DNA of 64,000 bases from an uncultured Dehalococcoidia bacterium (GTDB lineage Bacteria; Chloroflexota; Dehalococcoidia; Dehalococcoidales; UBA1222). Position 1 is the stretch's first letter. Every line of letters begins with the position of its first letter. The notes beneath the pieces were generated by a model. It ran no database searches. It was not told where the DNA came from and saw nothing but the letters and a program-made list of their open reading frames with translations. Shown piece after piece: positions 48,233 through 53,130 of this stretch. The stretch covers positions 8,204-72,203 of the forward strand of contig CAIMVG010000009.1 of NCBI GenBank assembly GCA_903844845.1. Direction: 5' to 3'. A program made the translations under genes and the position numbers.

Positions 48233-49273
48233 TTGGGTAAGGAGCACGCTATAGCCCGTATCATCACCGGTAAGCCGCTCGCCGAGGACATTTCGTTGGA
48301 TTCCAACCTGCGCCCTAGGAGTTTGTCCGAGTTCATCGGGCAGGCAAAAATCAAAGAGAACCTGGGCATATCCATCGCGGCCGCCCGGGCGCGTGGTGAA
48401 GCCTTGGATCATGTACTGCTTTACGGCCCCCCAGGTCTTGGGAAAACGACACTAGCGAATATCATCGCAGTGGAGATGGGTGTTAGCATCCGCATCACCT
48501 CCGGTCCGGCGATCGAACGCAGCGGTGACTTGGCGGCAATCCTGACTAACCTTCATGCGCAGGATATACTTTTTATCGACGAGATCCACCGGCTTGGCCG
48601 CGACGTTGAAGAAGTACTTTACCCTGCCATGGAAGAACGAGCGCTAGACATTGTTATCGGCAAGGGGCCCACGGCGAAAAGTCTGCGCCTCAAGCTCCCC
48701 GCTTTTACACTCATCGGGGCGACCACGCGTTTTGCGTCACTCAGCGCTCCCCTGAGGGACAGATTCGGCTCCGTTTACCGCATGGATTATTACGACGTGC
48801 ATTCCATGGAAGCTATAGTAAAACGTTCCGCACACCTTCTAGGCGTAAAGGCTGAGGATACAGGGTTACACGAGATAGCCTGCCGCTCCCGGGGGACACC
48901 AAGAGTGGCGAACCGATTGTTAAAAAGGGTTCGCGATTACACCCAGGTGAAAGCCGATGGCGAGATCACACACGATATAGCACTCACGGCCTTGGGACGT
49001 CTGGAAGTCGACCCCATCGGATTGGACGAGATAGACCACAGACTGTTACGAAGCATCATCGAGAAGTTTAACGGAGGGCCTGTTGGACTGGAAACTATCG
49101 CAGCTTCGATAAGCGAGGAAGCCGACACAATAATGGATGTTTACGAGCCATATCTACTGCAACTCGGGTTTCTCGACCGTACCCCGCGGGGCAGGCAGGT
49201 AACGCCGCTGGCATACAAGCACCTCGGTTTGGCATACAACAAAGACAAGAATGTCCAACCTGGGTTGTTGTGA
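48233..49273 (+). CDS. ruvB: Holliday junction branch migration helicase RuvB
   Basis: [39 protein letters not shown]; start uncertain (TTG 48233 or ATA 48251). Confidence 0.97.
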
Positions 49274-49833
49274 GCCTGGTGCCTGATTCCGTCCTCGTCC
49301 ACACCTGCTGTGCGCATTGCAGCGCATATACAGTAGCATACTGGCGCACACTGGGCTACAGTGTTACGGGGTTCTGGTACAATCCAAATATCCACCCCTT
49401 CACTGAACATAACCTGCGTCTTGAAGCTGTTAAAAAACTGTCTGAGACGATGGATTTCCCGTTGAAAGTTGAAGAAGGGTATGATTTCAGGGAATATTTT
49501 CGAATGGTAGCCTGGCGTGAGGATTCCCGATGCGCTCCCTGTTTCGAATTACGGCTGGGGAAAACGTCCCGAAAAGCCAGGGAACTTGGCATCGGTTCGT
49601 TTACCTCGAGCCTGCTAATCAGCCCCCATCAAAATCATGAGTTGGCCAGGAATACAGGAGTGAAGGCTGCGGCCGAAAACGGTGTGGGTTTTCTTTACGC
49701 TGATCTGCGGAAGCGATATTCGGACAGCCGTCACATAACCAAGCCGATGGAACTTTATCGGCAACAGTATTGCGGTTGCATATACAGCGAATTCGAACGA
49801 TATTCAGCGACCGAACAAGGATCGAAGGCGTAG
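49270..49833 (+). CDS. queH: Epoxyqueuosine reductase QueH (DUF208)
   Basis: [31 protein letters not shown]. Confidence 0.9.
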
Positions 49834-49839
49834 ACGTAA

Positions 49840-50463
49840 ATGTGCCACTCCGAACACAGCGGCGACAGCCTTCACGACCGGAATCCCGGCACAATCGGTT
49901 ACCGCGTACGCAAGATGTTGTGGGATGATGTCGAGCAGGTTCGAGGCATTGATCTCTTCTGCTTTCCGACCATGCTTCCACCTACCAATTACAAGACAGA
50001 GTTTATCAACCCGATGGCCCATTACCTCGTGGCTTACACGGGCCCCTCCTATGATACAGTTGCCGACACAGAAAACCCGAAAACATTAATACTTGGATTC
50101 ATAGGACTTTGGTATCTAGCAGGCGAGATCCACGTTATTAACTTGGCGGTCCATCCTGACTTCAGGAGTATAGGTGTGGGAGAACTGCTTCTGATAAGAG
50201 GCATCGAGGTGGCAATACGACTACGGGCTATACTGGTAACTCTGGAGGTTCGGGTTTCAAACATCGAAGCCAAGGCGCTTTATTCGAAATACGGCTTTTC
50301 AGAAAGGGGTATCCGCCGGGCATATTACCTGGATAACCGCGAAGATGCAGCGATAATGACGCTCGAACAAATGGAATCGCCAGCCTACATTAAAAAGTTG
50401 CAACAACTCTACCGGACTTGGTCGGAAAAAACCGGGATTTCTTCTGAAACGAACGAAGATTAG
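49840..50463 (+). CDS. rimI: RimI-like GNAT N-acetyltransferase
   Basis: EIHVINLAVHPDFR..GVG, TLEVRVSN..A..LY, RRAYYLDNREDA. Confidence 0.85.
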   Translation: MCHSEHSGDSLHDRNPGTIGYRVRKMLWDDVEQVRGIDLFCFPTMLPPTNYKTEFINPMAHYLVAYTGPSYDTVADTENPKTLILGFIGLWYLAGEIHVINLAVHPDFRSIGVGELLLIRGIEVAIRLRAILVTLEVRVSNIEAKALYSKYGFSERGIRRAYYLDNREDAAIMTLEQMESPAYIKKLQQLYRTWSEKTGISSETNED

Positions 50464-50645
50464 GTCATATCGGAAGAAAGCTTGCCACCCTCGGCCCAGT
50501 TAAACTTGGGGTTGTCTTTGAGGATGATAGTAACTTTCTCTTTGGGCGTCCCAAGCTTCACGAAGGCATCTGTGATACCTTCAATCAAAATCCTTTTCTG
50601 GTCGGTGGAACGCCCCAACCACATCTCAACTGTAACGATAGGCAT
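50460..50645 (-). CDS. 4-oxalocrotonate tautomerase family protein
   Basis: N-terminal Pro (MPIVTV), GRSTDQK, NWAEGG. Confidence 0.88.
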   Translation of the reverse strand: MPIVTVEMWLGRSTDQKRILIEGITDAFVKLGTPKEKVTIILKDNPKFNWAEGGKLSSDMT

Positions 50646-50672: not shown

Positions 50673-50900
50673 TTAGTCCGCTCCACCCTTCATTCTGTCG
50701 CGTTGTTTCTTCAGTTCACGTTGTCGCTCGAATTCTTCCTGGCTCATAGGAGTGCAGCTTTTAACTGCGTTGCTGTCCATAACCAGCAGAAAATTCTCGT
50801 GGCATTTCCAGCAGCGATAAGGTCCCTCATATCTGGAATCCAGAAGAGACATCTGGCCGTCAACATTACATTTCGGACAGGTAATTTTGACCATGCTCAT
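50673..50900 (-). CDS. Small CxxC...CxxC zinc/iron-ribbon protein
   Basis: ITCPKC...YRCWKC; GGAGG RBS 8-9 nt upstream of ATG 50900. Confidence 0.75.
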   Translation of the reverse strand: MSMVKITCPKCNVDGQMSLLDSRYEGPYRCWKCHENFLLVMDSNAVKSCTPMSQEEFERQRELKKQRDRMKGGAD

Positions 50901-50978
50901 TGGCTGGGCCCCCTCCACATTTTCTCGTTCCCGGCATATATCTATTACCGGAACCTTTAAGTTTTCAAATAGACTACT

Positions 50979-51662
50979 CTAGTTTGTTTTTTTTAGCAAG
51001 AGACATATATTGCGTGAAAAAGAGCGCATGGGGCAACTATAACGGCTTTCTGGGAAGGATTTCATGACTTCGAAACCCGTTTGCCGCGCCATGTGTTTTA
51101 ACTCTCCGAAAGTGAAGAGATAATAGTAGCGCTCCACGATTTCCTTTCCCACCTTGAAAGGAACAATGACCTCTTTGGACTTCATCAGGAAACGCGGTTG
51201 GCACTTGTTCCAGACGGTGACGAAAGCTTCGGCGCCGGGTTTGAGTACCCGTTTCAATTCAGACAATGCTTTCATCTGATCCTCGTGCCCCTTGAGATGG
51301 TGCAGCGAAGCGACTGAAACCGCAAAATCAAAACTGTCTGAACCAAACGGCAGGCGCCGCATGTCCGCTTGGATAAAGCGTGCCGAGAAACCATGCTTTT
51401 TTGAGAATTTATCGGCTAGCTTGAGCATACCGGCAGAATAGTCTACCCCTACCATTTCGAAACCTTCTTTGAAAGGCAAGAAATCCGCTCCGTGACCACA
51501 CCCAAGGTTAAGGAGTTTGCCTTTTTGCCAACGCGAGGCCAGTTCTTCGAGTTCTGTTTTAAAAATTGTGTAGTGGCGGAAGTTGTACCAGGCGGGCGCG
51601 ATGGCGTCGAATGTGGAGGAAGGGGATTCCGGGTTGTCTTTTGATTTACTCATATCACCCAT
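50979..51662 (-). CDS. Class I SAM methyltransferase, Trm9/ALKBH8-MT-like
   Basis: FDAIAPAWYNFR, NLGCGHG, FDFAVSVASLHHL, VLKPG..VTVW, VPF...RYYYLF..GEL. Confidence 0.75.
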   Translation of the reverse strand: MGDMSKSKDNPESPSSTFDAIAPAWYNFRHYTIFKTELEELASRWQKGKLLNLGCGHGADFLPFKEGFEMVGVDYSAGMLKLADKFSKKHGFSARFIQADMRRLPFGSDSFDFAVSVASLHHLKGHEDQMKALSELKRVLKPGAEAFVTVWNKCQPRFLMKSKEVIVPFKVGKEIVERYYYLFTFGELKHMARQTGFEVMKSFPESRYSCPMRSFSRNICLLLKKTN

Positions 51663-51741
51663 CGGAGGCAGCCTGAATTTAACGCAACCGGTTTGTAGCT
51701 ATTTTCCTAAACTGATAGACTTACAAGAAGGTATATATTAC

Positions 51742-53130
51742 ATGAGAAAATTATCGCGCACAATATCAGGTGTGACCCCTGTGGCGGTGATGGCCAAAGC
51801 CTGCGGCTGCCCGGGACATTGCATATATTGTCCCACCTATAGTGCTACTCCGCAGAGTTATACTCCGGAATCGCCTTCAGTAATACGCGCGAGAGCCTGC
51901 GATTATGATGCCTACCGGCAGGTTGACCGGCGCATATTCGTCCTTTCCGATATGGGTCATCCGACCGACAAAATCGAAATAATAGTCATGGGGGGCACAT
52001 TTTTAGCCACCTCAGTCGATTATCAATACCAGTTTATCAAGGATTGTTATGATGCTGTCAACGGTACACCTTCTTCCTCACTGGCCGAAGCGCAAAAGAT
52101 AAATGAGACCGCTGCGCGACGTTGCGTGGGGCTCTGTATCGAAACACGGCCTGATGTTTGCGGCGAAGTCGAAGTAGCACGCATGGTTGATTTTGGCACC
52201 ACGCGTGTTGAGCTTGGCGTACAGGTTTTGGATGACCGTATATACGAAGAGGTGAGAAGGGGGCATTCGGTGGCCGATGTGGTGCGCGCCACTGCTATCC
52301 TCAAGCGCGCCGGTTTGAAGGTCCATTATCATATGATGCAGGGGCTCCCTGGTTCTACTGCTGAACACGACCTGGAAATGTCGCGTGAACTTTACGAAAA
52401 CTCCGATTACAGGCCGGATGGCCTCAAGATATACCCGACAATGGTCGTCGAGGGAACTGTGCTTGAACAATGGTTCAAACAGGGTAAATACCGCCCTTAC
52501 CCGGCCGACGTCATGATAAATCTGATGGCCGAGATTAAGGCGATAGTACCCCCATACGTGAGGATATCACGCGTCCTGAGGGACATACCGCCCCAATATA
52601 TCGTGGGCGGGCTCAAGGAGTCGGTTCGTTCCACCGTCAAAGAAGTGATGAGTGCCAACGGAACTGCCTGCCGCTGCATCCGTTGCCGGGAATATGGGCA
52701 CCGCCTGAAAGCAGGCTGGAAGCCCGAGGAACCAAAGCTTTTAAGACTGGATTATGAGGCCTCGGGGGGGCATGAGATATTCCTGTCTTTCGAAGATGAA
52801 AACAGGATACTTTTCGGGCTTTTGCGCCTGAGGATTGAAGAACATGCGATCCAGCCGCCGGGCTTCGTTTCGCCTTTGGCTTTCGTGAGAGAATTGCACG
52901 TGTATGGCGGGGAATTGGCATTGGGGGAACGTGTGGAAAAGGCGGCGCAGCATCACGGATTTGGAAAAGCGCTACTGGCAGAAGCTGAAAGGATTTCTTC
53001 AGAAGAGTTTGGGGCGGGTTCAATTGCGATACTTAGTGGTGTCGGGGCGAGGCGGTACTATTCCGACCAGGGTTACCGGTTAGAGTTTGGTTATATGATA
53101 AAGGATTTGCGCCTAGGTCGTCCCATCTAG
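51742..53130 (+). CDS. elp3: Elongator Elp3-like radical SAM/KAT tRNA U34 carboxymethyltransferase
   Basis: SGVTPVAVM, CPGHCIYCP, PQSY, MGGTF, ETRPD, ELGVQ, CRCIRCRE, VRELHVYG, QHHGFG, SGVGARRYY. Confidence 0.95.
   Translation: MRKLSRTISGVTPVAVMAKACGCPGHCIYCPTYSATPQSYTPESPSVIRARACDYDAYRQVDRRIFVLSDMGHPTDKIEIIVMGGTFLATSVDYQYQFIKDCYDAVNGTPSSSLAEAQKINETAARRCVGLCIETRPDVCGEVEVARMVDFGTTRVELGVQVLDDRIYEEVRRGHSVADVVRATAILKRAGLKVHYHMMQGLPGSTAEHDLEMSRELYENSDYRPDGLKIYPTMVVEGTVLEQWFKQGKYRPYPADVMINLMAEIKAIVPPYVRISRVLRDIPPQYIVGGLKESVRSTVKEVMSANGTACRCIRCREYGHRLKAGWKPEEPKLLRLDYEASGGHEIFLSFEDENRILFGLLRLRIEEHAIQPPGFVSPLAFVRELHVYGGELALGERVEKAAQHHGFGKALLAEAERISSEEFGAGSIAILSGVGARRYYSDQGYRLEFGYMIKDLRLGRPI

Follow-up and report, generated by a model that had tools for sequence, protein, structure and literature searches.

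The window analysed here, a stretch of 64,000 nucleotides from contig CAIMVG010000009.1 of an uncultured Dehalococcoidia bacterium, carries neighbouring genes for an Elp3 protein, a class I S-adenosylmethionine (SAM)-dependent methyltransferase and a small zinc-ribbon protein. We found that these genes probably represent a bacterial copy of the archaeal and eukaryotic Elp3-Trm9 pathway, which acts on the wobble uridine (U34) of tRNA, and that this pathway stands in place of MnmE and MnmG (MnmEG). Its likely products would be 5-methoxycarbonylmethyluridine (mcm5U) and, on the tRNAs for Glu, Gln and Lys, the 2-thiolated form (mcm5s2U), made by a hybrid set of archaeal-type and bacterial-type enzymes.

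Sequence comparison supports the assignment of the methyltransferase to the Trm9 family, with a Trm9-type substrate lid composed of a two-stranded sheet after strand beta-5. A profile of the C-terminal 87 positions, built from 16 sequences and covering this lid, was searched against 177,635 distinct Protein Data Bank (PDB) sequences and found a single significant one, Trm9 of Yarrowia lipolytica (5cm2_Z, E 2.8e-5), the next match (0.18) being noise. The C-terminal 88 residues of the window copy, used as a single-sequence query, gave no match in the PDB. The profile made from 27 homologues matched 5cm2_Z with an E-value of 6.8e-18 over positions 44-199, at rank 3, the top match having 3.1e-19. 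The two better-scoring chains end at about positions 141-153, and Trm9 is the sole top match that is aligned beyond the SAM-binding core; its alignment extends through the HH, VW..Q, VPW and RYYxLY..GE motifs. An earlier note on this DNA, made from the sequence alone, had lined up four Trm9 motifs with the enzyme. Three of them are in register with 5cm2_Z, where they read FDFAISIAVIHHF, IYVW..Q and VPW...RYYHLYREGEI, and the N-terminal one, which falls mostly outside the crystal construct, is supported only indirectly.

The residues on which Trm9 depends are also conserved. Mutagenesis of yeast Trm9, as described in the available text of PMC4678810, found R29, D72, H116, W145, W168, R241, Y243 and N271 to be needed for function, and in the same source H115 and Q149 point towards the active site. 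By our own mapping, yeast R29, D72, H115, H116 and W145 correspond to R29, D74, H121, H122 and W151 of the window copy, and yeast Q149, W168, R241, Y243 and N271 to Q155, F169, R178, Y180 and N218, the equivalence of N218 resting on an N-x5-K pattern with a one-column offset in one alignment. Among the 27 homologues R29, D74, H121, H122, W151, Q155, R178 and N218 are invariant, and Y180 is nearly so. The lid-specific similarity and these catalytic residues bear out the earlier proposal of a Trm9-type rather than a generic methyltransferase. A bridging relative, the methyltransferase of the metagenome locus L120, has Trm9 as its best PDB match over the full length (E 2.8e-17, the next being 7.1e-13), in an alignment that includes the N-terminal TRY..WP and the C-terminal N-x5-K motifs, and it matches the window methyltransferase with an E-value of 8e-19. 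In the AlphaFold2 (AF2) model of the window enzyme the predicted local distance difference test score (pLDDT) is 90.9, and Trm9 has the lowest root-mean-square deviation of the fold comparison (1.8 Å over 172 residues) as well as its highest identity (26%). Thirty of the 120 homologues listed bear the JGI automatic name 'tRNA (uracil-5-)-methyltransferase TRM9'.

Several results weigh against so specific an assignment. The methyltransferase falls into generic Pfam families, Methyltransf_11 (E 1.8e-22) and Methyltransf_25, and is likewise generic in NCBIfam. Trm9 is not the best whole-protein match, being third by profile and seventh by phmmer (E 2.6e-9), where uncharacterised methyltransferases score best. 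Foldseek with the model places Trm9 at rank 11, and the VIA fold comparison does not discriminate, about 50 methyltransferases being tied at Z 19.5-21.7 (Trm9 at Z 21.1). Eighteen of the same 120 homologues are named UbiE. The window copy has F169 at the position of Trm9 W168, at which most homologues have tryptophan. In the Pfam and NCBIfam scans the matches to UbiE/MenG models were weak and below threshold.

Among the matches listed, the close homologues that bear organism names belong to the Dehalococcoidia, and the named nearest relatives outside the Chloroflexota are DPANN archaea, in clusters named Micrarchaeia, Pacearchaeota, Woesearchaeota, Diapherotrites and Nanoarchaeota. The neighbours by language-model features include a cluster of Nucleocytoviricota (giant virus) methyltransferases with 2388 members and a score of 0.98, and the same listing holds DPANN archaea, Thermoplasmatota and candidate-phyla-radiation bacteria. 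When longer fusions (ALKBH8-like proteins or fusions with Elp3, for example) were sought in a word-limited search, only two weak unrelated matches came up, which is weak evidence.

The methyltransferase is inherited together with Elp3. Each of the proteins was searched for in the same 251 genomes, a fixed sample of the class; Elp3 was found in 37 genomes and the methyltransferase (threshold E 1e-25) in 36, all of them within those 37; none of the 214 genomes lacking Elp3 gave a methyltransferase match at E 1e-25 or better. The lone Elp3 genome without it, G130, is 84% complete. In 32 of the 37 genomes the pair stands side by side on one contig in divergent orientation, and in G112 the methyltransferase gene is cut by a contig end. 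Eighty further loci from other genomes were picked by methyltransferase similarity alone; 71 of them have at least 600 bp of upstream sequence, and in 67 of these 71 a divergent elp3 lies there. The median start-to-start distance is 108 bp, taken over the 69 of the 80 related loci where Elp3 was found. The earlier note had offered conserved synteny as a check on its proposal, and the adjacency is indeed conserved, in gene order as well as in presence and absence.

Three kinds of observation detract from this linkage. In three of the 37 genomes (G054, G173 and G226) the pair is split between contigs, four of the 71 informative loci have no Elp3 upstream, and the relatives are non-independent samples of a class whose gene order is strongly conserved, with tautomerase, rimI and queH genes syntenic as well. 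Because of this kinship and conserved order, a wider metagenome survey was made, in which 80 loci were collected with an archaeal-type methyltransferase relative as bait. Sixty-eight of them match the window methyltransferase. A divergent elp3 lies upstream in 14 of the 30 loci that have a lid-reaching match and informative flanks, and in 1 of the 22 with core-only matches. The Elp3 proteins of those loci are 39-49% identical to the window Elp3, whereas those of the class sample are all at least 55% identical, and the Elp3 of L120 is nearer to the archaeal MinElp3 (M. infernus) than to the Dehalococcoides Elp3. Since the pairing recurs beside such distant Elp3 proteins, the divergent Elp3/Trm9-type pair is old and widespread, and the window enzyme is a member of it. 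A group of distant pairs (L117, L118, L120, L122, L123, L126, L129, L130, L133, L162, L167 and L175) has a constant gap of about 320-460 bp between the genes, with methyltransferases 24-37% and Elp3 proteins 39-46% identical to those of the window.

The Elp3 protein of the window is full-length, as the earlier note had it. It scores 557.6 bits against TIGR01211 (cut-off 350), has the Pfam architecture Radical_SAM, Radical_SAM_C and Acetyltransf_1 (a C-terminal GNAT domain), and matches solved Elp3 structures over its full length, with an E-value of 3.2e-198 to the Dehalococcoides mccartyi Elp3 (DmcElp3) 5l7j over residues 1-456 in the PDB sequence search. Its identity to the Elp3 proteins of the sampled class genomes is 55-67%. 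Some of the Elp3 matches in the class sample contain one in-frame stop codon (TAG in G149, G011, G078 and G241; TGA in G226 and G104; TAA in G213), and these may just be alignments entering the terminal stop. Formation of 5-carboxymethyluridine (cm5U) at U34 has been reported for archaeal Elp3, according to a citation in the available part of PMC5372719. PMC7663514, a review from the Elp3 structural laboratory, describes the in vitro activity of DmcElp3 as very weak and direct evidence of xcm5U as lacking in these bacteria, and the latter statement weighs against the pathway proposed here.

The remainder of the U34 machinery was sought in the genome from which the window comes (1.91 Mb, 97.9% complete). 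No mnmG match was found in it, and matches to mnmE were confined to the GTPase domain and below the cut-off, so that the genome lacks both genes, which the earlier note had proposed to look for. MnmA is present, with 322.9 bits against a cut-off of 237. Because mnmG and mnmE are missing and mnmA is kept, U34 is likely to end up as mcm5U and mcm5s2U. Of the 251 genomes of the class sample 84 have mnmG, and none of these is among the 37 that have Elp3; the two are mutually exclusive in this sample. The searches for these two genes found neither in 130 of the 251 genomes, and in the near-complete genomes of families f11, f20 and f27 both were absent from all 13 in each family. The genome encodes 47 tRNAs, whose U34 species include Glu-UUC, Gln-UUG, Lys-UUU, Arg-UCU, Gly-UCC and Leu. 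It also encodes tRNA-SeC(UCA), a U34 tRNA; in mammals ALKBH8, a homologue of Trm9, acts on the wobble uridine of tRNA-Sec.

These findings suggest the following pathway, in which Elp3 and the Trm9-like enzyme would replace MnmE and MnmG. The cm5U chemistry of Elp3 is established, and the window copy would likewise use SAM-derived radical chemistry and acetyl-CoA to place a carboxymethyl group on C5 of U34. The methyltransferase of the Trm9 family, whose gene is transcribed divergently, would then use SAM to methyl-esterify the carboxyl group of cm5U to give mcm5U. On the tRNAs for Glu (UUC), Gln (UUG) and Lys (UUU) the bacterial-type MnmA would add the 2-thio group, yielding mcm5s2U. The zinc-ribbon protein may bind the beta-3 edge of the methyltransferase, as Trm112 binds Trm9, and may serve as an activating or stabilising subunit; this is the least certain step and comes from structural modelling.

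The zinc-ribbon proteins form a family of about 72-75 residues in which the CPxC and CWKC pairs are invariant; they share the motif GPYRCWKC and end in a charged helix. Among 1478 homologues none is named and none has a Pfam family over threshold; for the window protein no curated family of Pfam or NCBIfam exceeded its cut-off, Zn_ribbon_10 remaining below threshold. Its AF2 model (pLDDT 84) has five strands and a helix at residues 54-71. When the complex of the methyltransferase with this protein was predicted, the ipSAE scores were 0.70, 0.60 and 0.72 (median 0.70), the best control being 0.00, and the runs agreed in at least 92% of contacts with a partner pLDDT of at least 80. The mark applied to these predictions is attained by 116 of 157 solved complexes and by 2 of 215 mismatched pairs. 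The predicted interface on the methyltransferase comprises residues 93-100 (strand beta-3) and 103-110. By our own mapping, its residues 49, 95, 97, 105 and 107 correspond to V59, E100, V102, A110 and P112 of Yarrowia Trm9, which the available text of PMC4678810 lists at the Trm112 interface, a beta-zipper on strand beta-3. Judging from the modelled complex, the chance that the zinc-ribbon protein is a partner of the methyltransferase in the role of Trm112, in an order where stand-alone Trm112 mostly was not found, appears to be about even.

The comparisons with Trm112 itself speak against a Trm112 identity and a partner role. A six-frame search of the organism's own genome with the Trm112 model PF03966, at E-values up to 0.1, did not match the zinc-ribbon gene, and the profile of the zinc-ribbon family gave no sequence match in the PDB and no Trm112 chain. 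Foldseek gave no match at an E-value of 0.001 or lower (the Archaeoglobus fulgidus Trm112 6zxw_H ranked 21 with E 2.2), and the wide VIA search gave nothing significant, LysW being best with Z 4.4 and Trm112 not being among the 50 matches listed. Alignment by hhalign with 16 Trm112 proteins of the class reached a probability of 46.9% over 36 columns, with the cysteines in register. The short Trm112 zinc-knuckle signature is given in the available part of PMC5372719 as [C/D]PX[C/D]X19-36CX2C within 60-80 residues, and the CPKC-x18-CWKC spacing of the zinc-ribbon proteins, which are 72-75 residues long, falls one residue below that range. In addition, the favourable complex prediction may reflect a likeness that the model has learned, since Trm112-methyltransferase complexes have been solved.

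With the family profile the zinc-ribbon gene was found in 20 of the 251 genomes; 14 of these are among the 37 that have Elp3, and 6 belong to the 214 that do not. That only 14 of the Elp3 genomes have it, and that the other six genomes have neither Elp3 nor the methyltransferase, is a further point against a partner role. Eleven of the 14 carry it on the same strand as the methyltransferase gene, no more than about 900 bp downstream, and it was found in 26 of the 74 related loci with enough downstream sequence. In 49 loci lacking it, with at least 300 bp downstream, no alternative small CxxC ORF follows the methyltransferase gene among the matches listed. Canonical Trm112 (PF03966) was found in 205 of the 251 sampled genomes (one flagged as unpublished), and the organism's own genome gave no PF03966 match over the cut-off for a stand-alone Trm112. 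Among the Elp3 genomes stand-alone Trm112 is present in 3 of the 14 that have the zinc-ribbon gene versus 19 of the 23 that lack it, and the four exceptions among the latter are at most 90% complete. The earlier suggestion of a Trm112-like partner is favoured by the complex prediction on the Trm112-equivalent edge and by the partly complementary distribution of Trm112, and disfavoured by the missing Trm112 model match and the six genomes without Elp3. Because no Trm112 membership is detectable and there is no strict tie to Elp3, the partner role is tentative.

Some side observations concern this family and Trm112. Weaker PF03966 matches occur in a further three of the 14 genomes that have both Elp3 and the zinc-ribbon gene, namely G116, G133 and G167; all fall within longer ORFs, and none corresponds to the zinc-ribbon gene. 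Two of the weak matches belong to a Trm112-like domain fused to a methyltransferase (296 and 269 residues), and the remaining ones are parts of ORFs of about 820 residues. The two fusions (L198:787-1677 in G116 and L199:844-1653 in G167) have an N-terminal Trm112-like zinc-knuckle and a class I methyltransferase, and their genomes lack stand-alone Trm112; fusions of this type have been described for archaea and 'some bacteria' in the available part of PMC5372719. An ArsP_1 permease-like ORF of about 179 residues lies between the methyltransferase and zinc-ribbon genes of G014 (L099:3302-3841). In L032, L069, L071, L077 and L086 these genes are about 600-670 bp apart, the gap content having been checked against Pfam in G014 only. 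In G226 a zinc-ribbon homologue (L095:4009-4230) is found 123 bp upstream of the gene for another Methyltransf_11 enzyme (L095:4353-5036). That enzyme shares 32% identity with the window enzyme, confined to the core, and the genome from which the window comes contains no orthologue of it. G226 carries its Trm9-like gene on a different contig, the coordinates listed alongside being L096:3996-4649.

It is improbable that the methyltransferase is a generic Methyltransf_11 enzyme of a small-molecule or UbiE-like kind that stands beside Elp3 through the gene order of the lineage and has no role in tRNA. The generic Pfam and NCBIfam families with their weak sub-threshold UbiE/MenG similarity, the uncharacterised enzymes that head the whole-protein PDB search, the undiscriminating fold searches and the equally syntenic tautomerase, rimI and queH neighbours would all be expected of such an enzyme. 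However, it would hardly occur in 36 of 37 genomes with Elp3 and be missing from all 214 others, nor recur in divergent pairing beside Elp3 proteins only 39-49% identical, nor have a lid half that matches Trm9 alone in the PDB together with invariant Trm9 catalytic residues. There is a small but real chance that the pair does act on U34 and that mcm5U is not the end product, either because another atom or intermediate is methylated or because cm5U or 5-carbamoylmethyluridine (ncm5U) is final and the ester transient. Yeast trm9 mutants reportedly accumulate ncm5U, which hints at a branch that is not fully understood. The replacement of W168 by phenylalanine in the window copy, the report of ncm5U in Thermoplasma tRNA (the available part of PMC5372719) and the very weak activity of DmcElp3 in vitro (likewise PMC7663514) fit with another product. 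Against it, the proposed positioners of the cm5U carboxylate, R29, H121/H122 and R178, and the uracil reader N218 are conserved, and the biochemical function of Haloferax Trm9-Trm112 is reported as demonstrated in the available text of PMC6144793.

The explanations that concern the zinc-ribbon protein are of very different weight. That it is an independent small protein, the methyltransferase acting alone or with another protein, falls only just short of an even chance. Its presence in just 14 of the 37 Elp3 genomes and 26 of the 74 related loci, the six genomes that have it without Elp3 or the methyltransferase, the permease-like gene that intervenes in some genomes and the lack of a Trm112 family or fold match all point that way, as do its unrelated neighbours elsewhere (nadD/RNase J-like, pyruvate:ferredoxin oxidoreductase and shikimate genes). 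On the other hand, an independent protein does not readily explain why the complex prediction passes on the Trm112-equivalent edge with controls at 0.00, or why stand-alone Trm112 is present in 3 of the 14 Elp3 genomes with the zinc-ribbon gene versus 19 of the 23 without. The zinc-ribbon homologue beside another Methyltransf_11 gene in G226 is what is expected of a multi-methyltransferase hub, and the CPxC-x18-CxxC spacing and the length of 72-75 residues are near the Trm112 zinc-knuckle signature published in PMC5372719, as far as its available part goes. A Kti11/Dph3-like role, in which the protein would bind metal and carry electrons to reduce the Elp3 iron-sulfur cluster, is highly improbable. 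Kti11 serves Elongator in eukaryotes, and a small protein with four conserved cysteines near Elp3 would suit that function, but its gene runs in the direction of the methyltransferase gene and not of elp3, 23 of the 37 Elp3 genomes are without it, and the model confidently places the protein on the methyltransferase. The earlier note had named Kti11 as its alternative to Trm112; no zf-CSL match was found in Pfam at E-values up to 0.01, nor any other Kti11 family match, which leaves this alternative unsupported. Returning to the partner role, it can be proposed, tentatively and at somewhat less than an even chance, that the zinc-ribbon proteins are an unannotated, non-canonical family of Trm112-type subunits. 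They would bind and activate the Trm9-like enzyme, would have replaced stand-alone Trm112 in this order and perhaps serve other Methyltransf_11 enzymes, as G226 hints.

The coordinates of the genes are given in the table below. All three ORFs of the earlier note lie where it had placed them, its divergent spacer of roughly 80 bp measures 79 bp, and its peptide strings TFDAIAPAWYNFR, FDFAVSVASLHHL, VTVW, VPF...RYYYLFTFGEL and CPKC...CWKC are all found in the translations. For elp3, the ATG at 51742 has a GAAGG ribosome-binding site about 10 nt upstream, the frame being open from a TTG at 51583. The zinc-ribbon ORF would extend over 50673-50918 (81 residues) if the GTG at 50918 were used; the ATG at 50900 has GGAGG upstream and is aligned with the starts of homologues, and is therefore the likely start, giving the 75-residue protein that the earlier note described. 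The gene begins 78 bp downstream of the methyltransferase stop codon on the same strand. The spacer contains one weak sigma-70-like match (51712-51739, plus strand), which is not evidence of a promoter because 6 such sites occur in the region versus 3.4 expected.

Table. Features of the elp3-methyltransferase locus and its neighbourhood, in window coordinates
Feature	Position	Strand	Description
Elp3	51742-53130	+	ATG start, 462 aa; radical-SAM and GNAT enzyme; predicted to form cm5U at tRNA U34
Divergent spacer, start codon to start codon	51663-51741	.	79 bp; presumably carries both promoters
Trm9-like class I SAM methyltransferase	50979-51662	-	227 aa; predicted methyl esterification of cm5U34 to mcm5U34
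Zinc-ribbon protein	50673-50900	-	75 aa; CPKC-x18-CWKC and charged C-terminal helix; candidate Trm112-like partner
queH	49270-49833		PF02677, E 1.4e-52
rimI	49840-50463		207-aa ORF; RimI match confined to residues 82-173
4-oxalocrotonate-tautomerase-family gene	50460-50645		61 aa, convergent with rimI

The trio is flanked by queH, rimI and the tautomerase gene on one side and by a gene for an SdpI/DUF1648 membrane protein (Pfam) on the other. The queH gene, in which the earlier note saw a tRNA-modification context, is real, and the context is weak because queH, rimI and the tautomerase gene merely belong to a conserved neighbourhood. The ends of rimI and the tautomerase-family gene overlap by 4 bp, and both are syntenic with the methyltransferase gene in many relatives. 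At the beginning of the window, positions 1-2000 have a GC content of 0.389, compared with 0.48-0.60 across the remaining window.

The proposed pathway resembles several known systems. Like Trm9-Trm112 of Saccharomyces cerevisiae and Y. lipolytica (5CM2) and like ALKBH8-TRMT112, it has an enzyme with a Trm9-type lid and catalytic residues, which would act after Elp3 in the pathway and whose beta-3 edge is the predicted binding site of a small zinc protein. Unlike them, the window enzyme is bacterial, has 227 residues without the eukaryotic insertions or the AlkB and RRM domains, and has phenylalanine for W168; its candidate partner is not a recognisable Trm112, and its activity is a prediction. 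The archaeal minimal pathway of Haloferax volcanii also has a stand-alone Elp3 without Elp1, Elp2, Elp4, Elp5 and Elp6, and clustering of the elp3 and trm9 genes occurs in Sulfolobus solfataricus, as far as the available parts of PMC6144793 and PMC5372719 describe them. The window host differs in being a bacterium, and its 2-thiolation would depend on MnmA, not Ncs6/Tuc1. The bacterial MnmE-MnmG (and MnmC) and MnmA route to 5-(carboxy)methylaminomethyl-(2-thio)uridine, (c)mnm5(s2)U34, acts at the same tRNA position, serves the same decoding purpose and shares MnmA, whereas the C5 side-chain chemistry and its enzymes are distinct. The short form of Trm112/YcaR (PF03966) is similar to the zinc-ribbon protein in its size of about 60-80 residues, in the order CPxC...CxxC and in the predicted contact with the beta-3 strand of a methyltransferase. 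The zinc-ribbon protein, however, lacks a PF03966 match and the YPIxDGIPxLL strand motif of the class Trm112 proteins, has a spacer of 18 residues instead of 19-36 and has an extra charged C-terminal helix. DmcElp3 (5L7J, 5L7L and 6IA6) is a close full-length homologue of the window Elp3, and the literature on it, in the parts examined, is silent on a neighbouring methyltransferase or a downstream pathway.

The 2017 review of Trm112 (PMC5372719), in its available part, recognises close Trm9 orthologues only in the Sulfolobales and Halobacteriales and none in bacteria, and states that no bacterial relatives of the eukaryotic Trm112-dependent methyltransferases were detected. Our literature search turned up neither a report of a Trm9 next to Elp3 in a bacterium nor a paper joining Trm9 with Chloroflex*. 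In automatic annotation the TRM9 label is already on many homologues in IMG, which tempers the value of the assignment; the new element is the candidate zinc-ribbon partner.

In conclusion, a Trm9-type enzyme that is strictly co-inherited with Elp3, in genomes without MnmE and MnmG, predicts mcm5U and mcm5s2U in the tRNA of cultivable Dehalococcoidia. The Elp3 protein of this bacterial group serves as a structural model for the catalytic subunit of Elongator, and the locus provides three soluble bacterial proteins as a minimal system in which the Elongator-Trm9 pathway, with its link to human disease, can be studied. If the partner is real, it would widen the range of small zinc proteins that activate methyltransferases. 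Elp3, the Trm9-like enzyme and the novel activator would then make up a complete three-protein mcm5(s2)U pathway of a kind that reviews have not credited to bacteria.

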